Shown here piece after piece: positions 4,012 to 17,859 of a stretch of 64,000 bases of DNA. Origin of the DNA: Escherichia phage ime. The DNA is taken from the sequence record MN850576.1, one strand, 5' to 3'. The notes under the pieces are model-generated. The model was not told where the DNA came from. It saw only the letters and a program-made list of their open reading frames with translations, and ran no database searches. The position numbers and the translations under genes are program-made. Within the stretch, counting starts at the first letter, position 1, and each line of letters starts with the position of its first letter.

Positions 4012-4251
4012 ATGTACAAGTCATTCTCAATCTACTCAAGACAGGCGAAACACTACACAGAGATCCTGATCACTCAGAAAAAGTCTGTAGAAGGTGAGTG
4101 GGAGTATCACCATAAAATGTTGCGTCCAGATTGGGTTTTTGATAGACTTATTGCTATGATCCCTCTTGGAGAAGTATACCCTCTGACAGGTCATAGGGAT
4201 GCTTGGGATTTAATTGATTACATAGATTCATTTAAGGAGCCTAGATTATGA
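4012..4251 (+). CDS. hypothetical protein
   Basis: Internal ATG of track ORF 3979..4251 with AGAGGGGG RBS. Confidence 0.4.
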   Translation: MYKSFSIYSRQAKHYTEILITQKKSVEGEWEYHHKMLRPDWVFDRLIAMIPLGEVYPLTGHRDAWDLIDYIDSFKEPRL

Positions 4252-4646
4252 AGATTGAGATTACTAAAGAAGGTAAGAAAGTGTCCGGCAACTATGCAAC
4301 AGTAATTCGGGATTTAATGTTTGAAGCCACCAAGATCGGTACATCTAAAGTTGGTCAAACTGTTAGTGTGAAAAGTAATATCGCCACAGGAGAGAAGGTA
4401 TTCATTGTGGTCAAAGGGCAGGATCCCGTGGAAGGAACAGTGGGCCGAGGTGGCTACCTGTGCATTTCTGAAGAGCCGCGTATGTTAGTGGCTGACGCTA
4501 CTATGGGTGGGAAACGTGTGTGCGAGGCGGATGAGGTAATGATTATCCAACCTGTTGATCCAGATGACCCAGCAACTTGGGTGGTAGGAAATGAAATCTT
4601 CTCTTTAGAAGAGTTATCCTTCCCAGCACCGCGCTCTGTTCAGTAA
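4248..4646 (+). CDS. hypothetical protein
   Basis: ORF track; TAAGGAG RBS; ATGA start/stop overlap. Confidence 0.5.
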   Translation: MKIEITKEGKKVSGNYATVIRDLMFEATKIGTSKVGQTVSVKSNIATGEKVFIVVKGQDPVEGTVGRGGYLCISEEPRMLVADATMGGKRVCEADEVMIIQPVDPDDPATWVVGNEIFSLEELSFPAPRSVQ

Positions 4647-4683
4647 TAATTTATCTTACCAGGGACGGTAGGTAGGAGGTAGC

Positions 4684-4917
4684 ATGAAAGTTAAATTTCT
4701 TACAGATTTAGGGTACCCTTCCTTGGTTGACTGTGTTGGTAAAATTGTGGAAGCAAAACGGCTATCTGCAAACGAGAATGTTGTCCTGGTTAAAGGGAAT
4801 GATTTACTAGCTGCAGGTGCAGAGTCTGGCAGGATCTCTCCTGATTATATGTATTACCTATCTTTAAGTAATCTGCCAGAGCGAGGCGGTAAAGGCCTTG
4901 AAGTTGTGGAGGAGTGA
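4684..4917 (+). CDS. small protein, paralog family A (MKVKxL ... KGxDLxxAGA ... EVVEE)
   Basis: TAGGAGG RBS; shared motifs with 8329, 8546, 10418, 10686 ORFs. Confidence 0.5.
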   Translation: MKVKFLTDLGYPSLVDCVGKIVEAKRLSANENVVLVKGNDLLAAGAESGRISPDYMYYLSLSNLPERGGKGLEVVEE

Positions 4918-4922
4918 CAGGT

Positions 4923-5447
4923 ATGCTTCTGATTAACTGGGAAGACCTCTATGGGGACAAAGACCCTGTTGCGTTTGTTGATCGTAGGTGGAGATATACT
5001 GAAGAACAACTGGCGGCAAAAAATTTAACTGCAAAACGCAGAAAGATCATCCAGTGCAAGTACAAATACGCACAGTTCGCTGCAAAAGTGTCTCCACAAA
5101 TCGAGAGCTTTGTGCTTAAATTGTATGACGAGTACCTCAAATTCAAATTGGATTTTGTGCAGGTGTACCGTGCACAGGTACGACCAGATACCAACATATG
5201 TAGATGGAAGGTTGTTTGTGAAGGTAAAGATTTGCCGCTCAGCTTGACAATTGAGTGGCGTTATGGGTATCATGAGTGTGGTCTGTATGATATTTGGGAT
5301 GTCATTGTAGATCCTGCTAAGCATCTGAACACAGAGGAGCTGGAATATATCAATAAGGTTATTCTCGATATGTTTTTCAGCTACACACATGAAAACTCTG
5401 AGAAAGAACGGGATAATTTTCTTGACACCCTCAGCGACCATTTGTAG
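4923..5447 (+). CDS. hypothetical protein
   Basis: ATG 4923 with GGAGGAG RBS (track ORF begins at GTG 4914). Confidence 0.55.
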   Translation: MLLINWEDLYGDKDPVAFVDRRWRYTEEQLAAKNLTAKRRKIIQCKYKYAQFAAKVSPQIESFVLKLYDEYLKFKLDFVQVYRAQVRPDTNICRWKVVCEGKDLPLSLTIEWRYGYHECGLYDIWDVIVDPAKHLNTEELEYINKVILDMFFSYTHENSEKERDNFLDTLSDHL

Positions 5448-5477
5448 TGTACAATTTAACCTACAAAGGGAGGACCA

Positions 5478-5705
5478 ATGAGTATAAATGTTGTGCTAAT
5501 AGCTTACCTGGTAATGTCCGTTATAACAGCGGTATTCTTGACAGGTGTATGCATCGTGTCCAGACGAAGGGTGAAGTTTGATGATTTTATCACCATCATC
5601 ACTGCTGCACCTTTTTGGCCTGTTGTTATCTTCATCGTAATAATGTGCCTAGTTGATTACTACAAGAATATCAGGAAGGAGAGTAGGGATGGAGACCGCA
5701 CCTAA
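5478..5705 (+). CDS. small membrane protein
   Basis: AAGGGAGG RBS; hydrophobic segments. Confidence 0.5.
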   Translation: MSINVVLIAYLVMSVITAVFLTGVCIVSRRRVKFDDFITIITAAPFWPVVIFIVIMCLVDYYKNIRKESRDGDRT

Positions 5706-5841
5706 AACTATCTATACTGTTCTTAAAGAGATTGCGTTCTACGCAGATCTTAGCCAGGCACCTTTATGGGAAAAGAGCATGTATTTAAAATGGTGCGTTA
5801 ATTTAGGGAGACCTTCCAGTGTTTCAAGCCATGTTTATTGA
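5689..5841 (+). CDS. hypothetical small protein
   Basis: Internal ATG of track ORF 5653..5841 with GGAAGGAG RBS. Confidence 0.3.
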   Translation: METAPKTIYTVLKEIAFYADLSQAPLWEKSMYLKWCVNLGRPSSVSSHVY

Positions 5842-5906
5842 GATGCTATCTGGGATATTGTTACTGGTAGCCATCTTAGGTGGTGCAGTTCTGATGTATA
5901 ACTATC

Positions 5907-6110
5907 TTGAAAAAGGAGACAGCAATGGCAAAAAATAAATCTTTAGAGCAGGCTGAAAACCTTCTCCACGAGCTGGTAAAGGAGTGGAAAGTTGAATACT
6001 CAGATTTTAATGCACGAGAGGGTGAAGATTATTGGCCTACGGAGCGCTCAGAGGGCGAATGGTATCAAGATTTCATAGAGTGGTTATATCAGACGTGCGA
6101 TGAGGGGTGA
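5907..6110 (+). CDS. hypothetical protein
   Basis: AAAAAGGAG RBS. Confidence 0.45.
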   Translation: MKKETAMAKNKSLEQAENLLHELVKEWKVEYSDFNAREGEDYWPTERSEGEWYQDFIEWLYQTCDEG

Positions 6111-6112
6111 CG

Positions 6113-6568
6113 ATGTTTGTTAAATATGTAAAAACGTGCCTCAACAATCTTGGTAGAGAGCATTGGTACACCTTGCTTGAAAAAGGAGAAATTTTAACAA
6201 AATCTGGAAAGATAACTTTAATACCCTTGGACGATAAAGACCCGTCACTACTTATCATAGATGATTACGTTACAGGTGTGTCGTACGAGGTCTCTGTGGA
6301 GAGGTTAATACGCAGATCTGGAGGTCCTTATGACCGAAGAGAGTATGTTTTCGATTCTATTACAGAGAAGGAAGATCCGTCTCTAATGTTTAGGATGGTA
6401 ATCAGGGATATGAAATCATCTATAAATAGGATCGTAAAGGACATTAAGGAACCTTTTAGAGTAAAAGTTAAGAAGTTTTTCGATTCTAAGATTAACATAC
6501 TCGCCGTTGCACTAGGTGTAGTTCAACTTCTGTTAATTTTGCACTATTTTGGACTACTATTTAAGTAG
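6113..6568 (+). CDS. hypothetical protein with C-terminal hydrophobic segment
   Basis: ATG 6113 after GAGGGGTG. Confidence 0.5.
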   Translation: MFVKYVKTCLNNLGREHWYTLLEKGEILTKSGKITLIPLDDKDPSLLIIDDYVTGVSYEVSVERLIRRSGGPYDRREYVFDSITEKEDPSLMFRMVIRDMKSSINRIVKDIKEPFRVKVKKFFDSKINILAVALGVVQLLLILHYFGLLFK

Positions 6569-6630
6569 TGGTTGAGATATGGCACAAAGGATGTGCCATA
6601 GTGAAATAAACTAAGAAAGAGGTAGAGAGA

Positions 6631-6978
6631 ATGCCAAAGATTAAAACGTTATTAATGTGGGTAGCTGTTTTAGCTTTTATAGGGTACTGGACTTGGGAAA
6701 CTGAATTAAAAGATATCGGATATACCAGTCTTGAGAGCAAGGCGTGCATTGGTATAACCGATGCATTCAGGCAAAATGCTATGGATCACGAATGTGTCGA
6801 TGCAGACATAGATGATAAACTGTCTAAGGACAAAGACTTCTACCACGGGTATGCTTTGCTTGACAGTGGGGACACTGTAGAGTTCTGGTCGTGGTTTCGT
6901 GAAGATGGAACAATAAAAACAGCAGTAAAAATCTCCAACAAAGAGTTAATGCTGTTGCAGCAGAAGGAGGTTCAATGA
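6631..6978 (+). CDS. hypothetical protein with N-terminal hydrophobic/signal segment
   Basis: AAGAAAGAGG RBS. Confidence 0.5.
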   Translation: MPKIKTLLMWVAVLAFIGYWTWETELKDIGYTSLESKACIGITDAFRQNAMDHECVDADIDDKLSKDKDFYHGYALLDSGDTVEFWSWFREDGTIKTAVKISNKELMLLQQKEVQ

Positions 6979-7262
6979 TCTGGATATCCTATGCGGATGG
7001 CACCATGCTGTATACTGCGGGTACCCGATACGAAGTTCAGGAGAACGATAAAAAATTTATCGTAAGAACATTTGACAAGGACGACAACCTTTTGCTAGAA
7101 TTGACTTACAAGGTTGGAGAGGTATCCAATATCCAATTGGATTGTGGTCATAAAGATAACCCACTCAAAAAACCTGGAATAGGCAAGGCTTCAGAAGAAC
7201 GTTTGTCTCGTATTGCAGAAAGCGTTTCTACACAAAAATCTAAGAAGGGGACTAGAAAATGA
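6975..7262 (+). CDS. hypothetical protein
   Basis: AGAAGGAGG RBS; ATGA overlap. Confidence 0.5.
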   Translation: MIWISYADGTMLYTAGTRYEVQENDKKFIVRTFDKDDNLLLELTYKVGEVSNIQLDCGHKDNPLKKPGIGKASEERLSRIAESVSTQKSKKGTRK

Positions 7263-7453
7263 AAAACTTACGTTTTAACACTTATTACTACAACACATTG
7301 AATGATTTGTATTATATTGTTCGAAGTAAAAGTCCTGAAACAGTCCTATTCTGCCGCGAACCTTTCAAAGGGGAGGAAGTAGAGTCTGAGATGAATGTTA
7401 GCCAGATCACCTCTTTGTTGCTCTCAGGTGCAATGGAAGAAGCAATATTCTAA
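7259..7453 (+). CDS. hypothetical protein
   Basis: ORF track; overlap coupling. Confidence 0.45.
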   Translation: MKNLRFNTYYYNTLNDLYYIVRSKSPETVLFCREPFKGEEVESEMNVSQITSLLLSGAMEEAIF

Positions 7454-7470
7454 ACCAGGCGGGGGGTTTT

Positions 7471-7656
7471 ATGAAGCACTATTGCCTGTCTGGTAGAATG
7501 GGTGCAGATTGTGATTGGGTTTTCTTAAAACTTGTCAGCATTCGAGAGTTCATCCCAGAGGAAGAGCAAGAAAGCGAGCTGATGTCATGGATCAACCATT
7601 ACGGTAACACTTTTCGGCATGTTAAGGTAGAAGAGTTGCCAAGCGAGGCTGATTGA
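7471..7656 (+). CDS. hypothetical protein
   Basis: ORF track; G-rich RBS. Confidence 0.45.
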   Translation: MKHYCLSGRMGADCDWVFLKLVSIREFIPEEEQESELMSWINHYGNTFRHVKVEELPSEAD

Positions 7657-7658
7657 CT

Positions 7659-7748
7659 ATGATTGCATCAATATTAACGTTTATGGGTGGCGTGGCATTC
7701 GGATTCATTGTTTGCCTGTTTATAGTGATTATGTCTATGCGAGGCTGA
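7659..7748 (+). CDS. small hydrophobic peptide (29 aa), below track cutoff
   Basis: ATG 2 nt after upstream stop; hand-translated MIASILTFMGGVAFGFIVCLFIVIMSMRG. Confidence 0.3.
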   Translation: MIASILTFMGGVAFGFIVCLFIVIMSMRG

Positions 7749-7751
7749 ATT

Positions 7752-8048
7752 ATGAAACTTTTTGAGTGGTTTAAAAAGTTTAAATATAAAGCTGTAGCCA
7801 TCGTGCCGTGGTCCATTCAGTGGGTTGATGAAGGTGGTCTACCGATACCTGGTGACAAAGATACTGGGTACTGGATTATGATGGAGAACGGGTTTGGAAA
7901 GCGAAAGTATACGTGCACAAACTCTACTCGATCTGCACTTAATAGAGTTCCTGGTTACAAACTTATGGTTGTGTGGAAAATGTCAGGCGTGCCTCCAGCC
8001 AATGCTCAATTTCTTACTGACAATCCGACCACGGTAGAGGGAGATTGA
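7752..8048 (+). CDS. hypothetical protein
   Basis: ORF track. Confidence 0.5.
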   Translation: MKLFEWFKKFKYKAVAIVPWSIQWVDEGGLPIPGDKDTGYWIMMENGFGKRKYTCTNSTRSALNRVPGYKLMVVWKMSGVPPANAQFLTDNPTTVEGD

Positions 8049-8050
8049 TA

Positions 8051-8332
8051 ATGAAAAAGATTAACAGTAGTGAAGTAGAGTTTAAACTTGTCGGAAAAGG
8101 CACTTACTGGGAAGTTCGTCAAAAGGTATATTTGTTCGGTATTATTCCCTACTGGTCTAAATTCTACTGGGGAGCTAACGAGTGGGGAAGATACGCCACC
8201 AAATCAATGGCACTTATTGGTATAGCAGAGTACATTGCAGCCCGAGATAGGGTTGGAACCACTTATTACTACACTGCTGACGATATTCGTAACAGTGTTT
8301 ACATCCCACAACCGCCTGAGGGAGACCGTTGA
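8051..8332 (+). CDS. hypothetical protein
   Basis: ATG 8051 (track ORF starts at TTG 8045). Confidence 0.5.
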   Translation: MKKINSSEVEFKLVGKGTYWEVRQKVYLFGIIPYWSKFYWGANEWGRYATKSMALIGIAEYIAARDRVGTTYYYTADDIRNSVYIPQPPEGDR

Positions 8333-8556
8333 TGAAAGTTAAAGTTTTAGATTCAAGCTTCTATATTGGTCAGGAGCCCTTAGTGGGGAAAGTGTTTACC
8401 GCTATCCCTAACGAAGATTATCCTGACCTTTTAAAAATAAAAGGTGCAGATCTTATTTCCGCTGGTGCATCTCAGGACTGCTTTGACAGCCAGTGGACCT
8501 ACAACTTTGCCCTTGGTGAGGATGTAGAGATAGTGGAGGACGAGAATGAAGGTTAA
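8329..8556 (+). CDS. small protein, paralog family A
   Basis: MMKVKVLD...KGADLISAGA motif. Confidence 0.5.
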   Translation: MMKVKVLDSSFYIGQEPLVGKVFTAIPNEDYPDLLKIKGADLISAGASQDCFDSQWTYNFALGEDVEIVEDENEG

Positions 8557-8800
8557 AATTCTTGATTCTAACGTCTACTTGGGACAATCCTTCCTGAAGG
8601 GAAAGGTCGTTCCTGCGGTATACTTTGAAGGGTTGCCGTGGGATGATCCTGTGCGGCAACATCGCAGTTATGTAGGCCACAACGTGGTGTTTATCTTGGG
8701 ATCAGACCTGATCGCTGCTGGTGCACCGGAATATTATTTCGGGGAAGAATCCTATTATGCCTTTGGGGCAGGGTCAGATGCAGAGATTGTAGAGCTGTGA
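8546..8800 (+). CDS. small protein, paralog family A
   Basis: MKVKILD...GSDLIAAGA...EIVEL. Confidence 0.5.
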   Translation: MKVKILDSNVYLGQSFLKGKVVPAVYFEGLPWDDPVRQHRSYVGHNVVFILGSDLIAAGAPEYYFGEESYYAFGAGSDAEIVEL

Positions 8801-8812
8801 TGGGTAACCGTT

Positions 8813-9211
8813 GTGAAAAATAAACTGTTCAAAGTTACAATGAAAATTCGCGGAGCTTGGAGCGTAAAGCAAGGGCGTATCCCAGAATTTGAGAAAGACT
8901 TCTACGTAGTCTCCACCTCGGAGGAGGCTGCATGCTGGCAGGCTGGCTATGCATATGCAAGAACCTGGTACGAAGGATACCAGACTGGTGGCTATGACGG
9001 AGAAATTATCAGCAAGGGTGTAGAAGAAATTAATGTGTTGACAAGTGAAAAAGTTTTTGTTATAGTGCATCCAGATTCCAGAGTGAAGCATTACTGGAAT
9101 GCCAGAACAAAAACTTGGACACCGTTTGCAGATTCTGCTACACCACTTTTAAACCAGAAAGCTCTTGACTCTGTCCCGAGCTATGGGGTTGTTGAAGAAA
9201 AGCTAAACTGA
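8813..9211 (+). CDS. hypothetical protein (paralog of 11018..11413)
   Basis: Shared FVxxHPxSxxxYW...WTP motif. Confidence 0.5.
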   Translation: MKNKLFKVTMKIRGAWSVKQGRIPEFEKDFYVVSTSEEAACWQAGYAYARTWYEGYQTGGYDGEIISKGVEEINVLTSEKVFVIVHPDSRVKHYWNARTKTWTPFADSATPLLNQKALDSVPSYGVVEEKLN

Positions 9212-9228
9212 AACGGTGAGGTACTAAC

Positions 9229-9519
9229 ATGATTGATTTAGTTCTAGACACTGATAACACCGGAGCGTTTAAAAAGGATGGTGTAACAAGCGTTGACCAA
9301 TCATTCCCTGCCAAGATTGACTCAAAATGGACCTACAAGTTTGATGGAGAGATCTTCGCAAATGATGAGAAGGTTGTAGATGCTGCAGCCATTTTGAACG
9401 CTCTAGGGTACGACCCTGTGAATTCTTTGATCAAGGATCCTGTTGAGTTTGCAGAGTATGTTCGAAAAATGGCAGATCTTGCTGTGGATATTTTAAAAAC
9501 TATCGACAACAATCTGTAA
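9229..9519 (+). CDS. hypothetical protein
   Basis: ORF track; GAGG RBS. Confidence 0.5.
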   Translation: MIDLVLDTDNTGAFKKDGVTSVDQSFPAKIDSKWTYKFDGEIFANDEKVVDAAAILNALGYDPVNSLIKDPVEFAEYVRKMADLAVDILKTIDNNL

Positions 9520-9525
9520 AAACTG

Positions 9526-9554
9526 TTGACACAACGCTTCAGATTTAGTATCAT
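9526..9554 (+). promoter_or_regulatory. sigma70-like promoter (TTGACA-17-TATCAT)
   Basis: TTGACA 9526-9531, TATCAT 9549-9554, upstream of HPF gene. Confidence 0.5.
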
Positions 9555-9601
9555 TGTTTTCAAAGAGGGTTTGGTTCCCTCTTCTTTAAAAGGAACACGT
9601 T

Positions 9602-9919
9602 ATGCAAATTGAAATCACTGGCAACGTAGAAATCACTGAAGGTATGGTGTCTTTCATTTCCCACAAAATGTCTAAGCTGGAGCGTTTGCATCCCTCTGCC
9701 AACTATGCACGTGTGAGTGTAAAAGTTGAAAATGATCACCAGGAAGTTATGGCGTTCATTTTTGACAATTCTGGAAAAGAAGTTATTGCCAAAGCTAAAG
9801 GCAGTGATGCTTACGAGGCAACTGACCGTATGGTAGATGTTGCAGCACGTCAACTGGCTAAATGCGGTGGAAAGAAAGGTAAGGGGAAAGGCAAAGTAAA
9901 GATTGACTTTGGAGAATGA
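9602..9919 (+). CDS. hpf: ribosome hibernation promoting factor / RaiA-family protein (short form)
   Basis: MQIEITGNVEITEGM...KLERL...ARQLAK closely parallels E. coli HPF MQLNITGNNVEITEAL...KLEQY...ARQLTK (recalled). Confidence 0.75.
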   Translation: MQIEITGNVEITEGMVSFISHKMSKLERLHPSANYARVSVKVENDHQEVMAFIFDNSGKEVIAKAKGSDAYEATDRMVDVAARQLAKCGGKKGKGKGKVKIDFGE

Positions 9920-9928
9920 GGTGCTACA

Positions 9929-10030
9929 ATGGGTGTGATCAAGAAATTAGTCCCAAATGTAGAGATTGCATGCTTTGAAATTATGTTTGCAATCGCAGTT
10001 GTAGTTAATGTGTTAGGTTACGGCTATTAA
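9929..10030 (+). CDS. small hydrophobic protein (33 aa), below track cutoff
   Basis: ATG 9929 with GGAGAATGAGGTG RBS; hand-translated. Confidence 0.3.
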   Translation: MGVIKKLVPNVEIACFEIMFAIAVVVNVLGYGY

Positions 10031-10056
10031 TATCAAATAATTGAGGAGACCTCTAA

Positions 10057-10326
10057 ATGAAAATTAAATTATTCAAAACTGAGCTGGCAGACAAAAACTG
10101 TGGACTGGTTGAAGGTATGATTGTCGAAGCACAACCAGTTGACTATATGAAGGTGGTTCGTGATGCCCTGGGTGAAGGTTTTGATCTGATGGAGCCAGCT
10201 CTGCGAGAAGATGTTATCGAGATGGCTAAAAAGCACACACCTGAAGGCATGGTGGTGTTTGTTGCACCGGGTAACGGAGAAGAGTTGATTGTAACTCCGG
10301 ATGTGTATGAGATTGTAGAGGAATAA
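10057..10326 (+). CDS. small acidic protein (family A-related, ...EIVEE)
   Basis: GAGGAGA RBS. Confidence 0.5.
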   Translation: MKIKLFKTELADKNCGLVEGMIVEAQPVDYMKVVRDALGEGFDLMEPALREDVIEMAKKHTPEGMVVFVAPGNGEELIVTPDVYEIVEE

Positions 10327-10417
10327 TCCTGCTTGGATTAGCATACTTCCTCGATAAGGAAGGTTTGTAATTATTTGTGGGAAAGGAATCCCAATCTCTT
10401 ACCAGAGGTGATACTAT

Positions 10418-10681
10418 ATGATTGTTTATTTTAAAACTTCAGGTGGATACCCTGATTCTCAAAGCTTGATCGGAAAAACGTGCACAGCATACTCACCTCT
10501 TGATGAGGAGGTAGGCGATATTCTACGAAATATGTATCGGATTGATCCTCAAGAAGCTTTTGATCAAAACCTTGTATTTGTCAAGGGCTCAGACATGAAG
10601 TCTTTGGGAGCATTCCCTGAAGCAGATGATGATGCCGTTTATTCGTTCATGACCCCTTTTGAAGCTATGGTTGTTGGGTGA
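10418..10681 (+). CDS. small protein, paralog family A
   Basis: LVFVKGSDMKSLGA motif. Confidence 0.5.
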   Translation: MIVYFKTSGGYPDSQSLIGKTCTAYSPLDEEVGDILRNMYRIDPQEAFDQNLVFVKGSDMKSLGAFPEADDDAVYSFMTPFEAMVVG

Positions 10682-10685
10682 TAAT

Positions 10686-11018
10686 ATGAAAGTACGCTTT
10701 ATTGGTGAAACAATTCCTGTGCATCTCCGGTCGCCTGAGGATTCTGCAGATCTTGCATCTCAAAAGGCGAGAGGTTATGATAAGAAAGTAACCTCAACTG
10801 ATGTAGTGCTTGAGGCTACTAGTCTACCTGACCCTGCTGCATTCTTTAATCATTATGGGTACTATTTCAGCAATCTGATGAATATCGGTGAGCTTGTGTT
10901 TATTAGTGGTGGAGAGATTGTTAGCAAGCTTGGCGGCGATCCGGATGTCTTTCATGAAACCTGTCCTTTTGCATTTGTGGTAGGTTCAGATGTGGAAGTT
11001 ATTGAGGAGGTGCGGTAA
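10686..11018 (+). CDS. small protein, paralog family A
   Basis: MKVRFIGE...VVGSDVEVIEE; ATG 10686. Confidence 0.5.
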   Translation: MKVRFIGETIPVHLRSPEDSADLASQKARGYDKKVTSTDVVLEATSLPDPAAFFNHYGYYFSNLMNIGELVFISGGEIVSKLGGDPDVFHETCPFAFVVGSDVEVIEEVR

Positions 11019-11413
11019 TGGTAAGCCTATACCGTGTTGAGTATAGCTCAGATACTGTATACAACGTAAGAAGCAAAGATCGCAGCGACAGAGTGCAAGA
11101 AATGTATGTTCTTGCCGACAGTCCGTTATCTGCAGCGTTCAAGGCAGGGGCTCTTGCATCTCGTTGGAAATTTGAAGGCGGATCTTTCTATGAAGAAACC
11201 CTTGAAGATTCTGTTGTTATTTCTTCTGTAGAGGTTTCAGATGACTACGAAGGGAAAAAGTTCGTAATGCGGCACCCACACAGCAACATTGCGTACTACT
11301 GGGATGTTCTGAACAACGAGTGGACCCCAGATCTTCAGAAGGCTACTGTGCTAACACCGTTTTTGGCAGATAAGTTCCCACCAGAAGGTAATTTATCCGC
11401 ACTGTTTCAGTAA
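11018..11413 (+). CDS. hypothetical protein (paralog of 8813..9211)
   Basis: Shared HPxSNIAYYWD...WTP motif. Confidence 0.5.
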   Translation: MVSLYRVEYSSDTVYNVRSKDRSDRVQEMYVLADSPLSAAFKAGALASRWKFEGGSFYEETLEDSVVISSVEVSDDYEGKKFVMRHPHSNIAYYWDVLNNEWTPDLQKATVLTPFLADKFPPEGNLSALFQ

Positions 11414-11492
11414 TTTTCTTGCACACAGGTGTTGACAACGCCAACCCTGTGTGAAATAATACCTTCATCTTAACAAGACAGGAGACCGATTG

Positions 11493-11750
11493 ATGAAGAT
11501 TAAATTGAAAAACCTTGAAACGGCAGAGATTCAGGACGGTGTTGATTTCCGTTCTAAAGATGGTGACATCTTAGAGGTAAATATTCCAACCTACGAGCTG
11601 ATTAAAGGTTTTGGCAACGTTCCGGAAGAGGATATTACAGAAATTCTTATGATGTTGATTCTTGACGGAACTGTGTTTGTAGGTGAAGGTGAGAACGCTA
11701 TTGCAATCCCAGGCCATTTTTATGAAGTAGTTGACGAAGAGGTGCTGTAA
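11493..11750 (+). CDS. small acidic protein (family A-related)
   Basis: ATG 11493 with AGGAGA RBS. Confidence 0.5.
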   Translation: MKIKLKNLETAEIQDGVDFRSKDGDILEVNIPTYELIKGFGNVPEEDITEILMMLILDGTVFVGEGENAIAIPGHFYEVVDEEVL

Positions 11751-12101
11751 ATGAAAGTAGAAATTACCGGTTTTGATGTGAATGTGGTTCCGGAAGATAT
11801 TTTAGCTAAACTTCCAGAAGGTTTTGGTAACGGCGTTGTGGTGGATGCTGTTCCTCCTACCAAAGACATTCTGCTGCAGTATGGTGTAGCAGAGGAAGAT
11901 GTCGATAAAGTTCTTACAATGATGGCAATCGATCGTGTTGTCGTTGTTAAAGGTCTCGATAATTTTGAGAGTGATCCCCTGATTATTCGTGGAGATGACT
12001 ACAAAATCATCGATAATGAAGGCCAAGAGTTCTATGAACCTTGTGCAGAAGATATTCTTAACTTATTACTGGAAGCAGGCACCGAAGAGGAGGACGAATA
12101 A
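11751..12101 (+). CDS. small highly acidic protein
   Basis: ORF track; abutting upstream stop. Confidence 0.5.
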   Translation: MKVEITGFDVNVVPEDILAKLPEGFGNGVVVDAVPPTKDILLQYGVAEEDVDKVLTMMAIDRVVVVKGLDNFESDPLIIRGDDYKIIDNEGQEFYEPCAEDILNLLLEAGTEEEDE

Positions 12102-12430
12102 TGAAGATTGACCCGTTACTGAAGGCTCGTGCAGAAAAAGCGTACACTATTAAGCTGACTAATCTGGTTCCTACTTGTCATCCGGATGTAGGTTGGCCCG
12201 AAGGTCTGGTAGAGGGAACTGTAACAGCTGCATACCTTCCTAACATCAAGTACCTTATGGAGATCTTAGAGATGGATGAGGAAACTGCAGAACAGTTCCA
12301 GTTAGATATGAAACAGAGTGGGACTCTGGTTATTCACGGGTGGTATAATACTAAAGATGCAGAAGACCCTCTGGTAACTTCTAATCTGGCATATGAAATC
12401 TTAGGGCCTTTGAACCTGGAGGAAGACTAA
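12101..12430 (+). CDS. small acidic protein
   Basis: ORF track; TAATG overlap. Confidence 0.5.
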   Translation: MKIDPLLKARAEKAYTIKLTNLVPTCHPDVGWPEGLVEGTVTAAYLPNIKYLMEILEMDEETAEQFQLDMKQSGTLVIHGWYNTKDAEDPLVTSNLAYEILGPLNLEED

Positions 12431-12717
12431 TGAAAGATCTGGTTAAGATTAAGATTAAAGATACCAATGGAGAACTCAGCCATTTTGGAATTAATGATGG
12501 TGACGAGCTGATCGCACACCTGCCTACTAAGGAGGTTGTAAGCAAAGCAGTTGCCGGAGAAGAAGCTGCAATGCAGGCTGCAGGTGTGGATGAAAACTAT
12601 GTAGCTATGTGCATGTGCCGAGATCAGGTTGTTCTGTATAAAGCGTATCGACCAAACGGAGCCACGGAGTGGCTTGTATTCCGACCCGAAGGATATGAAA
12701 TCTTAGAGGCACTATGA
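12430..12717 (+). CDS. hypothetical protein
   Basis: ORF track; TAATG overlap. Confidence 0.5.
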   Translation: MKDLVKIKIKDTNGELSHFGINDGDELIAHLPTKEVVSKAVAGEEAAMQAAGVDENYVAMCMCRDQVVLYKAYRPNGATEWLVFRPEGYEILEAL

Positions 12718-12806
12718 TAAATCTTGCCAAGGTTGCAACGGCACTGTTAATTATTTGCTGGTCTGTAACCTTAACACTGTGTCTTGTATTTCAGTGAGGT
12801 GCTTGT

Positions 12807-13070
12807 ATGAACATCCTGATGTGGGTTATAGCAGTGGCGTTTGTTGCATGTTTTTGCTGCTGGGTTGCGGTGAGGATTTCTGTAGCTACCCTTCGGAAGT
12901 TGGGGTTCTCAGAATGGGATATTAATATCCTTTCTTTTCGCAATGAAACAATCTCAGCCGCCCTGCTTTGTAAGAAATTCAAGTGGGAACCTTGTGAGGT
13001 CATGAGCTATCTAAGAACAGGCGATATCCCTGAAAGATTTAAAAAAGTTCTTGACGGCAAGGATAAATGA
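12807..13070 (+). CDS. small membrane protein
   Basis: ORF track; hydrophobic N-terminus. Confidence 0.45.
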   Translation: MNILMWVIAVAFVACFCCWVAVRISVATLRKLGFSEWDINILSFRNETISAALLCKKFKWEPCEVMSYLRTGDIPERFKKVLDGKDK

Positions 13071-13225
13071 CAGTATAGTGACTAACAAGAGGTGAGGAGT
13101 GACTGATTTTACTGAAGCTTTAATGATGGCCTTGTCTGTTTTAGCGCTATCGGTGTGTTTTGGGGCGTTATTCACATCTCTGGTTAAAGTTTTACATACA
13201 GTATTATTACCCAAGGAGCGCAGTA

Positions 13226-13477
13226 ATGACGAAGATTGACTTGAATGCTGGCGACCATGTTGTTGTCAAATGCATCGGAGATTATCTTGGATTCACAATC
13301 GGTAATACTTACGAGGCGGTAGTGGCGAAGGTTTATCATGATAAAGTCCTCAGTCTTGTATTTGACTGCGATGATGATGGAGATGACCGATACGTCTGTG
13401 AGGTGCTGGCACGAGACGACAGTGAAGACCAGAAATTCTTGGTTATTGAACTGAACGGTATTTTTGTAGAACGTTAA
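13226..13477 (+). CDS. hypothetical protein
   Basis: ATG 13226 with CAAGGAG RBS. Confidence 0.45.
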   Translation: MTKIDLNAGDHVVVKCIGDYLGFTIGNTYEAVVAKVYHDKVLSLVFDCDDDGDDRYVCEVLARDDSEDQKFLVIELNGIFVER

Positions 13478-13505
13478 TTTAAAACAACATAAGGGGACTC
13501 TTACT

Positions 13506-13811
13506 ATGGCTAAATCTAAAGTTGAACTGTTCACCTCTCTTCCTTCTGACACTGCAGAGCGTGATCGCCTTCGCAAGACAATCGAAGAACTGGTGGAACT
13601 CCAACTTCAGATTAAAGATCTGAAAGATGCCATTAAGGATATCATTCTCGTTGAGAAGCAGGATCACCTGTATTCTCCTAAATTCATCAAATCTCTGGTG
13701 GCTACCGAGTTCGATATTCGCTATGAGGCTGAAAAACGTCGAGCTAAAATCGAAGAAGAGGTTGAGCACATGTCCGAGGCAGACATTCTGTTCAAACGCT
13801 CTGTAGAATAA
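13506..13811 (+). CDS. hypothetical coiled-coil protein
   Basis: TAAGGGGA RBS. Confidence 0.5.
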   Translation: MAKSKVELFTSLPSDTAERDRLRKTIEELVELQLQIKDLKDAIKDIILVEKQDHLYSPKFIKSLVATEFDIRYEAEKRRAKIEEEVEHMSEADILFKRSVE

Positions 13812-13820
13812 TGACAAAAA

Positions 13821-13845
13821 GAGGGGCCCAAGCCCCTCTTTTTAC
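13821..13845 (+). terminator. rho-independent terminator
   Basis: GAGGGGC-CCAA-GCCCCTC followed by TTTTT. Confidence 0.6.
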
Positions 13846-13866
13846 TATCTATGAAGGAGATTTGAG

Positions 13867-14199
13867 ATGGGTATACCGATCACTGTAAAAGAATTGAATG
13901 AACGTGATGCAGGTGGTCTATGGCCTGCACGAAAAATACGCTGCATCCGTATGAAAGAGAACCTTGAGCATCTTGAGCAACAGAAACGGATTGAGGTTGG
14001 TGATATTTTCGAAGTATTTTATTCTGATCGCCGTAACTGGGAAACCATTCAACCTTCCGGTTTTGTTCTTGCTAAGCTTGACACTGGAGAAGTGATTGTT
14101 CCTGGGTTGGATATTGTCTTCGAAATTATCCAGGAGTGGGATCCGGACAAGATTAGATACGAAGAGCTATTCGGTGAAGGTATTATCAAACCTGTGTGA
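13867..14199 (+). CDS. hypothetical protein
   Basis: AAGGAGA RBS. Confidence 0.5.
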   Translation: MGIPITVKELNERDAGGLWPARKIRCIRMKENLEHLEQQKRIEVGDIFEVFYSDRRNWETIQPSGFVLAKLDTGEVIVPGLDIVFEIIQEWDPDKIRYEELFGEGIIKPV

Positions 14200-14207
14200 G
14201 GTGGATT

Positions 14208-14507
14208 ATGTCTACAAAGGCGGCTAAATACTCCTACATGCCATCAACCTCTGCAGAGGTAGACTTTAGTTTCGATGTGTTTCCACTGTTTGAGGTGGTT
14301 CTGGCATACCCAACAATACTATCTACTCCTGAATCACTTGTGCCTGTTAAGTTGCAGAACGCTATGCATTCCATGCACTACAACAACAAATGTAGGCACA
14401 GATGGTGTCAGGACGAGGAAAAAGATTTGGATAGTTTGAGAGATTTTGACAGTCACCTTTTGACACCTTTCAGCTACTCCAACCTTGATAAGCCCTCGTG
14501 GGTATAG
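14208..14507 (+). CDS. hypothetical protein
   Basis: ATG 14208 after GAGGTGG. Confidence 0.45.
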   Translation: MSTKAAKYSYMPSTSAEVDFSFDVFPLFEVVLAYPTILSTPESLVPVKLQNAMHSMHYNNKCRHRWCQDEEKDLDSLRDFDSHLLTPFSYSNLDKPSWV

Positions 14508-14531
14508 CAAAATATCAAATTTAAGACACCT

Positions 14532-14558
14532 AGGACGCTCTGTGGCGTCCTTTTCTTT
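14532..14558 (+). terminator. rho-independent terminator
   Basis: AGGACGC-TCTGTG-GCGTCCT followed by TTTCTTT. Confidence 0.6.
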
Positions 14559-14720
14559 ATCTGGTGCACGATTGCATACCTTGGGCAGTTAATCTCATTA
14601 CAGAGCGTTTAAGAGCTCCCTACAAACAACTCCATATTTCGAGCGTAGCGAGAACGCACGTCCGTTTTGACCCAAATCACCATACGCTCGGATTTTAACC
14701 AAACCCTCGCGGCGTTTCTG

Positions 14721-14749
14721 TTGACACATTACCGATCCAGTGATAGTAT
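14721..14749 (+). promoter_or_regulatory. sigma70-like promoter (TTGACA-17-TAGTAT)
   Basis: Consensus -35 and near-consensus -10. Confidence 0.5.
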
Positions 14750-14867
14750 CCACACATAGTTTGTAGAATATGGAGTACACAATGAGAACATTGTCCGAAG
14801 TTTTAGTGGTGATCCTGATGATCATTACGTCCATAGCGGCTGTTGCCGGAATACTCACGGGTGGAAC

Positions 14868-15080
14868 ATGATAAACACACATGCATCTGAAGAGACATCC
14901 AAAGGAGTGACTATATGTCCCTTGGCTGAGCCAGTGAAAGAGGAAAACTTAGATTCTGAAGATTCTCCATCTTCGCTCCAGGTAGATCCTGAGGCTGATG
15001 ACCTAACGTGGGAAGACATCGTAGATATCTGGTTCTCTATTATGCCTGAGCACGAAGAGTTCAGGGGTGGTAGACTATGA
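14868..15080 (+). CDS. small highly acidic protein
   Basis: ORF track; D/E-rich; start context weak. Confidence 0.35.
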   Translation: MINTHASEETSKGVTICPLAEPVKEENLDSEDSPSSLQVDPEADDLTWEDIVDIWFSIMPEHEEFRGGRL

Positions 15081-15201
15081 AGCACCGAGCCCACACAGGT
15101 TCCTCATGCTAAAGCATGGCCTGAAGAGGCAAACGTGCATAATTCCTGTGCATCGGAACGTATAAAACCCTGTTCACACTCTCATTTCCAGAGGAGATTT
15201 C

Positions 15202-15417
15202 ATGAAGATAGAAATATTTGGTGGAGCTGACAACACTCGTGGCCTGATTTACCTTGAATTCGATGAATCATACCTGCCAGAGGTGTTAAATATGGACTCT
15301 GTTGCTGATGCTTTGGGAGTAAGTCCTAAAGATCTCTACTCTGGTGCTGAGATTGATGGTTGGGAGGAGACCATGAACATTGATTTCAGTGAAGTAGGTG
15401 ATGAACCACTGGACTGA
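15202..15417 (+). CDS. small acidic protein (family A-related)
   Basis: GAGGAGA RBS. Confidence 0.5.
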   Translation: MKIEIFGGADNTRGLIYLEFDESYLPEVLNMDSVADALGVSPKDLYSGAEIDGWEETMNIDFSEVGDEPLD

Positions 15418-15546
15418 CACACAATTAGCTGCCAGGCTAAAGTGCTGGAAGCGCACCTATAACACATCTTTCAACTAAATTTCCTACCACCACAATCACT
15501 TACCTCCCACACATGACTGTTTGCTTGTTTAGTGAGCAGTCATGCC

Positions 15547-16992: not shown

Positions 16993-17244
16993 AGCCATGC
17001 CATTCGTTTGCATGACAATAATTATACATGACAATAATCGCACTGATTATAATTAGCATGACATAATATAAAAGCAGGGCAACTATTAGCAGATCTATAG
17101 TTGCCTTGCTTGTTATGTCATGATTAACTAAATACAAGGCAACTATGATCTGATTAATAGTTTGCAGACAAACTATCACGGGGGTGATGGTTACTGCTTT
17201 TATATTATGTCGCGACTCCGTCGCGCCATGCCATTCGTTTGCAT
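16993..17244. repeat. 20-bp direct repeats (GCCATGCCATTCGTTTGCAT) flanking nested inverted repeats; candidate ori/pac
   Basis: Direct repeats at ~16993-17012 and 17225-17244; inverted-repeat arms 17060-17077/17194-17211; palindrome GGCAACTAT-N10-ATAGTTGCC 17078-17105; ATAGTTTG-CAGA-CAAACTAT 17157-17176. Confidence 0.6.
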
Positions 17245-17859
17245 AGTTGCCTTATTGTTACAGATAAAATAATTGTATTGTTAATTATTTCTTATCTTTC
17301 TATTAGTCATCTAATGATTTCAGTTAATATAGTAACGTACAGTAAACATTAGACGACTAAAGATTTCTCTGCTTATGGTAACCTAACGTGACAATTCCAG
17401 ACTGTTTACGAAAAATGTTGACACCTGGGCCGATTTATGTTATGCAGTTTACACGAATAATTATTTTATGCAGGTATTGACTATTCCGTTATTCTATGGT
17501 TGGAATAAATGCTTAGCAGGCTATAGAATGGCGAGCGTACGTAAATTCTGAGATCTGGCGGCTATAGTTATACTCGATTTTTCACGTAGAAAACGCTTTT
17601 GTAGCTATGTAAGTGTATGACTTATAAAGATTTTTAGTTGTTGACAAGATATTGGAGATGTGCATCAGATTAAATTTTGTGCAATAGCTACATTACGTGC
17701 ACTTTTGGAAGAAAAAACGTGTAAAAATGGCCCTGCTACCACACAATGAAAGATTATGCAATAGTTATTTTATATGTATATTTGTACAGTGTGTGGGATT
17801 AATGGCTAGTCAATTATTCCACTTGCCAGGTAGGGCCGTTTATGGTAGGAGAAGAGCAG

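Follow-up and report, generated by a model that had tools for sequence, protein, structure and literature searches.

Three families of small paralogous proteins in the accessory block of the rV5-like Escherichia phage ime, with a host-specific phenotype published for the orthologues of one operon

Nip of the temperate Bacillus phage Phi3T, which inhibits the SpbK NADase, is an accessory phage protein of 279 amino acids (aa) that carries two predicted SH3-like domains and an HU-like dimerisation domain and binds a defence protein (PMC11984713). The DNA-mimic anti-restriction proteins T7 Ocr, ArdA and T4 Arn are small, strongly acidic phage proteins. In phage Bas54, saturating transposon mutagenesis (HIDEN-SEQ) with resampling between Escherichia coli K-12 and the uropathogenic isolate CFE311 found the small unannotated gene bas54_0140 to be needed (log2 fold change [log2FC], -5.48) against DS-28, a predicted defence system of CFE311, and the requirement was validated with a knockout tested against the cloned system (bioRxiv 10.1101/2025.11.20.689424). 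Here we describe a set of small paralogous genes in a block at positions 4684 to 15417, on the plus strand, of a 64-kb stretch of Escherichia phage ime (MN850576.1); the whole stretch is referred to as the window, and genes are named by their start positions in it. The set is real and well delimited and consists of three paralogous families, which we call A, B and C and whose products are small and for the most part acidic, not of one array of nine as an initial annotation of the sequence had proposed. It belongs to a familiar type, the phage accessory or counter-defence gene arsenal, and is not a new kind of system; the fold assignment of families A and B is new, and the CFE311 phenotype of one of the operons is published and unexplored.

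Nip represents the type of mechanism that we propose for this block. It differs from the array proteins in its length, its paired SH3-like domains, its dimerisation domain and its origin in a temperate Bacillus phage, and we treat it as a precedent by functional analogy, with no homology expected. The DNA mimics resemble the array proteins in being small and strongly acidic, and tests of the array proteins for a DNA-mimic fold or a sequence relation to Ocr, ArdA, Arn or similar proteins found neither. The product of bas54_0140 has in common with an operon of two A genes and one C gene (A-A-C) its place in the accessory block, its small size and lack of annotation, its recovery in a transposon sequencing (Tn-seq) screen and its specificity for CFE311; it differs in being unrelated in sequence to A, B and C and, unlike the A-A-C operon, in being validated by knockout.

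Existing records capture part of this relatedness. As here, PHROGs groups 4684 with 8332 and 8546, and 8813 with 11018; unlike here, it divides A among three families and gives each of the five B genes a family of its own, and the wider paralogy is therefore absent from that record. The full-length PHROGs matches (E-values of 1e-32 to 1e-76) are to phrog_5009 for A, phrog_7379 for C and phrog_11868, phrog_12359, phrog_12155, phrog_12457 and phrog_12794 for B, all labelled 'unknown function', and 10418 matches phrog_13920 with a weak match to phrog_5009. Pfam returned no match to A, B or C at an E-value of 1 or below save two at chance level, and no SH3 or KOW family above its gathering score; NCBIfam gave nothing meaningful for any member, PADLOC no match at an E-value of 0.1 or below among the ten members tested, and profile searches of the PDB no sequence relative of any of the three families. 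The words paralog, duplication and gene family do not occur in the rV5 genome paper, and the accessory-gene screen of Silas et al. includes no rV5-like phages.

Three paralogous families in the rightward block

Phage ime is an rV5-like Vequintavirus, and its region from 4600 to 15500 shares 99.1% identity with Escherichia phage nomine; 122 GenBank phage records match the region at 90% identity or more, and almost all of these are rV5-like members of Vequintavirus. Annotated relatives carry about 40 short rightward genes in the block, downstream of genes for a ClpP-like protease and an N6-adenine methyltransferase, and almost all of these are labelled 'hypothetical protein', as are the array open reading frames (ORFs) in more than 100 rV5-like genomes. 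We based our comparisons on 36 plus-strand genes between 3162 and 15417, defined with the starts annotated in relatives.

All-versus-all BLASTP and phmmer searches of the 36 proteins gave three groups. Family A comprises 4684, 8332, 8546, 10418 and 10686, with pairwise E-values from 6e-15 to 4e-3; family B comprises 10057, 11493, 11751, 12101 and 12430 and is more weakly joined, with 6 of its 10 pairs linked at E-values from 1e-5 to 0.03; and family C is the pair 8813 and 11018 (E-values, 1e-10 and 7e-10; 28% identity; both phrog_7379), which the initial annotation had correctly recognized as a second pair. Profile-profile comparison with hhalign, for which the ortholog groups were enlarged with database homologues, gave probabilities of 80 to 99% within A and 94% for the C pair. 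Within B the probabilities were low (2 to 30%), yet the alignments were full-length and collinear over 59 to 85 columns, including those of 12101 to both 11751 and 12430. We regard membership as settled because leave-one-out hidden Markov models (HMMs) recovered every member of A (E-values of 2e-22 to 2e-6) and of B (2e-9 to 3e-4) at rank 1 of the 36 proteins. A six-frame scan of the entire 64 kb turned up the five A, five B and two C genes already listed and no others. The paralogy of the array genes is thus real and far above chance, but it is split over several families. The nine ORFs listed initially exist, and the alignment and HMM check suggested for them confirms significant similarity within A, B and C; the listing had, however, merged two families, taken in the unrelated 15202 and missed 12101 and 12430.

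Among the A genes, the nearest paralogue of 8546 is 8332 (41% identity; E-value, 6e-15; hhalign probability, 99.4%), and 10686 aligns to 8546 with an hhalign probability of 92%. We also considered A and B as a single sequence family and rejected this: neither family HMM detected members of the other (E-value > 0.3), hhalign of the ortholog groups and of a broad A profile against the B profile yielded a weak N-terminal match alone, with only 28 N-terminal columns aligned in the latter comparison (P, 0.005; probability, 7%), and 10057, 11493, 11751 and 15202 were not recovered by the family A profile tests. The kinship of A and B is kept as a possibility at the level of the predicted fold. ORF 15202 was rejected as a member of any family, with E-values of 0.7 or more in phmmer, hhalign and HMM tests against A, B and C.

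The motifs on which the original grouping relied are distributed accordingly unevenly. The internal KGxDLxxAGA motif is confined to the five A members and absent from the other ORFs for which it had been claimed; in an alignment of 28 sequences that includes distant metagenomic homologues, the G-x-[DE]-L-[IL]-x-x-G-A turn and the aromatic residues Y11, Y57 and F59 (8332 numbering) are nearly invariant. The N-terminal MK[VI]x[IFL] motif, by comparison, occurs in ten genes of the block, including the nonmembers 4248 and 15202, and is nearly matched by the start MQIEI of 9602-9919, a true S30AE/HPF ribosome hibernation factor (PF02482; E-value, 1.8e-12); because nonmembers carry it too, it is a generic signature of a first strand and fails as a family mark. 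We note separately that several GenBank records label orthologues of 10057-10326 'sigma 54 modulation factor', where Pfam finds nothing; this looks like a propagated misannotation, the genuine S30AE gene being 9602-9919.

Table 1. Positions of family members, neighbouring ORFs and expression signals in the window
Feature	Position	Strand	Details
Family A, solitary copy, 77 aa	4684..4917	+	phrog_5009, E 2e-35; leave-one-out E 4.6e-10, rank 1; KGNDLLAAGA
Family A, 74 aa, minimal form	8332..8556	+	opens first A-A-C triplet; given as 8329 in the initial annotation
Family A, 84 aa	8546..8800	+	insert between strands 2 and 3 longer by 14 residues
Family C, ~132 aa	8813..9211	+	start uncertain, GTG 8813 or ATG 8840; phrog_7379, E 5e-74
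Family B, 89 aa	10057..10326	+	stands alone between promoter-like site and terminator-like hairpin
Family A, 87 aa	10418..10681	+	25-residue insert; opens second A-A-C triplet; leave-one-out E 2e-6
Family A, 110 aa	10686..11018	+	insertions after strand 1 and between strands 2 and 3; leave-one-out E 2e-7
Family C, 131 aa	11018..11413	+	start overlaps 10686 stop; phrog_7379, E 2e-66
Family B, 85 aa	11493..11750	+	first of 4 tandem B genes; leave-one-out E 1.5e-8; net charge -13
Family B, 116 aa	11751..12101	+	acidic C-terminal extension; leave-one-out E 1.7e-9; net charge -21, isoelectric point 4.05
Family B, 109 aa	12101..12430	+	leave-one-out E 2.8e-4, rank 1
Family B, 95 aa	12430..12717	+	leave-one-out E 4e-6, rank 1; hhalign to 10057 over 85 columns
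Unrelated neighbour, 99 aa	14208..14507	+	bas54_0140 orthologue (99% identical)
Acidic ORF, 71 aa, outside A, B and C	15202..15417	+	own phrog_12108
Sigma-70-like promoter site, intergenic	9526..9554	+	10-11 of 12 consensus matches
Similar promoter-like sites	7636-7663, 9903-9930, 11432-11460, 13051-13079, 14721	+	in or at edge of gaps
Terminator-like hairpin	10346..10362	+	follows 10057
Stronger terminator-like hairpin	13814-13845		bidirectional, after 13506
Stronger terminator-like hairpin	14532-14551		after 14208

The order A-A-C occurs twice, as 8332-8546-8813 and as 10418-10686-11018, and four of the B genes form a tight tandem from 11493 to 12717. Segmental duplication of one A-A-C cassette was considered and set aside, the similarities among A genes being unsupportive: 8332 and 8546 are mutually closest (39.9 bits), and no two A genes are further apart than 10418 and 10686 (3.2 bits). 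The repeated order may stem from tandem duplications that occurred independently, or from gene conversion. Database proteins from rV5-like contigs indicate that recombination between paralogues is ongoing, two of them (P0014 and P0024) joining the N-terminus of 8332 to the C-terminus of 8546 and a third (P0028) a 4684-like N-terminus to an 8332-like C-terminus. In P0084, likewise from an rV5-like contig, the C-terminal half of 12101 follows an unrelated N-terminus (PF24132).

Just upstream of the first A gene, 4248-4646 encodes a protein of 132 aa (phrog_5748) whose sequence opens with MKIEIT and includes KVFIVVKGQD, a stretch similar to strand 3 of family A. It showed no significant link to A or B in any test run (profile comparison, PHROGs), and phrog_5748 is also annotated on a gene of Seunavirus phage FENT2. 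Going by these sequence resemblances, the product could be a further divergent barrel protein.

Predicted folds and distribution

AlphaFold2 models built on the family alignments were confident for both A and B. The model of 8332 (A) has a predicted local distance difference test (pLDDT) score of 90.3, with strands at residues 2-5, 21-23, 33-37, 56-61 and 65-69 and a helix at 38-43; that of 10057 (B) has a pLDDT of 92.6, with strands at 2-5, 22-27, 66-69, 76-79 and 84-88 and helices within 30-60. Both are five-stranded barrels that superpose on SH3, KOW or PsaE structures, and in the structure search they match the same SH3, KOW and PsaE chains. On these models, the A and B proteins are predicted SH3-like small beta-barrels. 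The A barrel spans about 70 residues and carries the conserved G-x-D-L-I-x-A-G-A turn, and length variation among A members is located between strands 2 and 3, the same position at which B has its helical insert of about 35 residues. Compared with the SH3 domains, the KOW domains of Spt5/NusG and PsaE, A differs by a helix and a long loop after strand 3 and B by its helical insert, with sequence identities of 4 to 23%, and we read the predicted SH3-like assignment as a fold class that gives no evidence of a common function. In Foldseek searches of viral models, the 10057 model resembled a 95-aa protein of Vequintavirus ECP32 (E-value, 1.6e-3), which has the length of 12430, and an 86-aa protein of Vibrio phage Vc1 (E-value, 3.5e-4). 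A search of BFVD with the B model returned no identifiable A member at a significant E-value.

These models bear on the possibility that the nine or more ORFs all belong to a single diversified superfamily, made up of acidic DNA mimics or anti-restriction proteins; structure prediction had been proposed as a check on this. The B members are indeed very acidic (net charge, -6 to -21; isoelectric point, 4.05 to 4.8), A and B share a predicted fold class and strand order, an MK[VI]K[LI] first strand and an E[IV][IV]E last strand, and 11751 is the best non-family match of every family A leave-one-out HMM (E-values from 0.008 to 0.47). The predicted folds are SH3-like barrels instead of DNA mimics, and we consider such a superfamily improbable.

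The families differ in how widely they occur. Word-indexed searches found A and B almost exclusively on rV5-like contigs (about 135 kb). Run with the A profile against 1.84 billion representatives, a full HMMER scan returned 36 proteins, including distant homologues of 63 to 136 aa with the consensus MKVKLLNDGGYxGM..VGKVVEA...IxGxELIxAGA....F....YxF..G.E.EIVEE. The metagenomic proteins P0101 (136 aa) and P0106 (264 aa) contain two and three tandem A domains, respectively, and the A domain can therefore function in a cis-multimeric form. The giant proteins P0091 and P0093, also hit by the A profile, were judged spurious, with GRDIILAGN-type repeats. Among cultured phages, tblastn with the A consensus found four places per genome in Vequintavirus and typically one place each in lambdoid mEp554/mEp013, Citrobacter phage Moon, Vibrio phage VnaP and Proteus and Iodobacter phages, so that multiple A copies (four places per record by tblastn, five by HMM in the window) occur in Vequintavirus only. 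In the searches, B and C turned up in Vequintavirus records only, at 95 to 100% identity, and HMMs of the three families returned no match from the 40-kb loci that flank ClpP in Seunavirus, Mydovirus and Certrevirus phages. Within the genus, the ORFs are intact and 95 to 100% conserved in about 118 genomes. We note that 18 records with accessions MG0656xx ('Campylobacter phage C5, C7, C9, C12, C14, A141' and others) are 98 to 100% identical to rV5-like E. coli phages over the block; they are probably mislabelled or contaminant assemblies.

In temperate phages, single A copies lie between RecT/Erf-SSB genes and NinX, MT-A70 and integrase genes in prophages of Morganella and of one other genome, and among small ORFs between the Q antiterminator and holin genes in E. 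coli lambdoid prophages; an HMM scan of these contexts found no B or C gene near them. Prophage accessory loci frequently carry anti-phage genes, and the position of A homologues in moron-like accessory regions, next to early regions that include SieB and in the interval from Q to the lysis genes, would suit a role in competition between phages, that is, in superinfection exclusion or defence against co-infecting phages or satellites and not against host immunity. Such a role is nonetheless distinctly unlikely for the ime genes: no PADLOC defence model matches the ten members tested, the Tn-seq defect described below is a loss of the phage's own fitness in one host in single infection, and the early-left and late operon positions suggest expression in the lytic cycle and not in the lysogen.

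In rV5-like phages, which are frequent candidates for therapeutic and biocontrol use, about one third of the genes lack annotation. The present analysis reduces twelve unannotated genes to three families, two of them with a confident predicted fold. Any function established for family A here would extend to an accessory gene of wide occurrence, since lambdoid prophages, T4-like phages and Vibrio phages carry it too.

Host-specific requirement and proposed role

Our best-supported reading is that the array genes encode accessory infection factors specific to particular hosts; we propose this at least for 10418-10686-11018, the second A-A-C operon, whose orthologues are conditionally needed on a single clinical strain. 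We identified Bas54 as phage MaxBurger (MZ501093), whose block genes are 90 to 100% identical to those of the window. On K-12, all A, B and C orthologues were classed as 'non-essential' or 'intermediate', with bas54_0166 (4684) and bas54_0150 (11018) non-essential. On CFE311, insertions were completely lost from all three genes of the second operon: bas54_0152 (10418, A; log2FC, -7.16), bas54_0151 (10686, A; log2FC, -6.17) and bas54_0150 (11018, C; log2FC, -6.77), each with an adjusted p of 0.00000. Insertions in bas54_0157 (8813, C) were partly reduced (log2FC, -2.14; adjusted p, 0), those in bas54_0153 (10057, B) had a log2FC of -2.78 that was not significant, and the remaining A genes (bas54_0158, 0159 and 0166, the orthologues of 8332, 8546 and 4684) and the tandem B genes (bas54_0146 to 0149) were unaffected (bioRxiv 10.1101/2025.11.20.689424). 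The authors of the preprint argue against widespread polar effects, and the retention of insertions in bas54_0159 and bas54_0158, upstream of bas54_0157, is consistent with that argument. All members are thus dispensable on a permissive host, and the orthologues of 10418, 10686, 11018 and 8813 are needed on CFE311 as judged by insertions.

A separate observation concerns the supplement of the same preprint. In Supplementary file 9 (Extended Data Table 8), the sheet 'resampling_K-12_vs_CFE303' (Data S6) shares the 311 wig command line with the CFE311 sheet (Data S7), and all values shown in the two are identical; the CFE303 comparison appears to be missing from that file.

Natural variants support the dispensability of segments of the block. 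Phage EduardKellenberger lacks 5478-8813, including the first A-A-C triplet, and has a shortened 4923 orthologue followed by the 9229 orthologue, and phage MaxBurger lacks 6107-7752. Dispensability on K-12 and the deletion of segments in some isolates are what would be expected of functionless remnants of tandem duplication or of miscalled ORFs. That explanation is hardly credible, however, for ORFs that are intact and so well conserved across about 118 genomes, that give confident fold predictions and have distant homologues in unrelated phages, and four of which have a host-specific fitness phenotype that contradicts it.

We propose instead, with about an even chance of being right, that A, B and C are accessory host-specific infection factors that bind host proteins to overcome strain-specific barriers, most likely anti-phage defence. 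In this model, the region would be the dispensable distal end of the rightward unit of transcription in an rV5-like Vequintavirus; the A and B proteins would bind host proteins stoichiometrically, variation in the loop or insert between strands 2 and 3 would set target specificity, and the paralogues would together cover a range of barriers that differ from strain to strain, anti-phage defence systems being the most likely. Paralogy, predicted folds, distribution and natural dispensability come from the present analysis, and dispensability on K-12 and the conditional need on one clinical isolate come from the literature; from these we infer protein binding, a counter-defence purpose and loop-determined specificity. 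Counter-defence is taken as the most probable purpose because of the validated neighbour 14208, the strain specificity and the accessory distribution. The suggestion of a host-takeover or anti-defence arsenal, made in the initial annotation, finds support in that neighbour and in the depletion of the orthologues of 10418, 10686, 11018 and 8813 on CFE311, and it is left without a phenotype for most members.

Several points weigh against our proposal. Eight of the 12 members, including the four tandem B genes, have no phenotype on K-12 or CFE311, and the preprint validated two genes only and cloned two CFE311 defence loci; its evidence for bas54_0150 to 0152 consists of transposon insertions (bioRxiv 10.1101/2025.11.20.689424), and the CFE311 defect of these three could come from a polar effect on just one gene or from a requirement that has nothing to do with defence. 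Sequence homology between A and B is not demonstrable by cross-family HMMs or hhalign. Rapid arms-race divergence between strains is not evident, since orthologues are 95 to 100% conserved across the genus. Finally, the Vequintavirinae have been reported to be exceptionally susceptible to restriction-modification systems (PMC8594841), which argues against an effective anti-restriction role. Most members are without a known phenotype, and our confidence in the mechanism therefore stays moderate.

The same phenotype data bear on a more general role in host takeover, in which the proteins would modulate transcription, translation or proteolysis for phage yield, with no link to defence. We think this unlikely: an effect would be expected on K-12 as well, yet the strong phenotype is confined to a single clinical isolate, natural isolates have lost whole segments, and no member has a sequence match to KOW or to any Pfam family. 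A more elaborate form of the counter-defence proposal, which we put forward tentatively and think rather unlikely, is that the A-A-C triplet is a multicomponent module in which two SH3-like adaptors and their C partner neutralize an immunity mechanism of CFE311, A being an adaptor fold reused by many phage lineages; 8332-8546-8813 may then be a weaker-acting copy of that module. For our preferred reading of host-specific infection factors, the families and the host-specific operon phenotype offer a concrete entry point, namely which CFE311 factor would block the mutants and whether the SH3-like proteins bind it.

Gene junctions, expression signals and the flanking region

The translational coupling noted initially is borne out by tight junctions, with gaps of -11 to 0 nucleotides (nt), at 8051/8332, 8332/8546, 10686/11018, 11493/11751, 11751/12101 and 12101/12430. 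At six junctions the codons for the C-terminal EE (GAGGAG) overlap the Shine-Dalgarno sequence of the next gene, as in GTT GTG GAG GAG TGA before 4923 and GAA GAG GAG GAC GAA TAATG before 12101, and the shared 'EE' ending therefore partly reflects translational coupling. The ending E[IV][IV]EE is nonetheless conserved in distant family A homologues and forms the last strand of the A model.

Promoters and terminators had also been described as punctuating the array, and this is borne out in part. Sigma-70-like sites are moderately enriched (43, versus 29.5 +/- 6.1 in shuffles). Of the 10 strongest plus-strand promoter-like sites inside the block, about 6 lie in gaps between genes, and these gaps account for about 13% of its length by our count; the site that precedes 11493 has 11 of 12 consensus matches. 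A sigma-70 promoter was searched for directly upstream of 10418 and not found. Of the terminator-like sites, just three are convincing, at 10346, 13814-13845 and 14532.

Beyond the block, about 2 kb of the window between 15420 and 17900, where the rightward and leftward gene blocks converge, is without credible genes. It contains a repeat cluster at 16994-17260 with two perfect repeats, one direct (20 nt; copies at 16994 and 17225) and one inverted (18 nt; 17060/17194), together with GGCAACTAT/ATAGTTGCC hairpins, and an Rfam search of 3 to 19 kb gave no matches. The equivalent region of Bas54 tolerates no transposon insertions (HIDEN-SEQ; bioRxiv 10.1101/2025.11.20.689424). This gene-poor region may be an origin or another cis-acting element.

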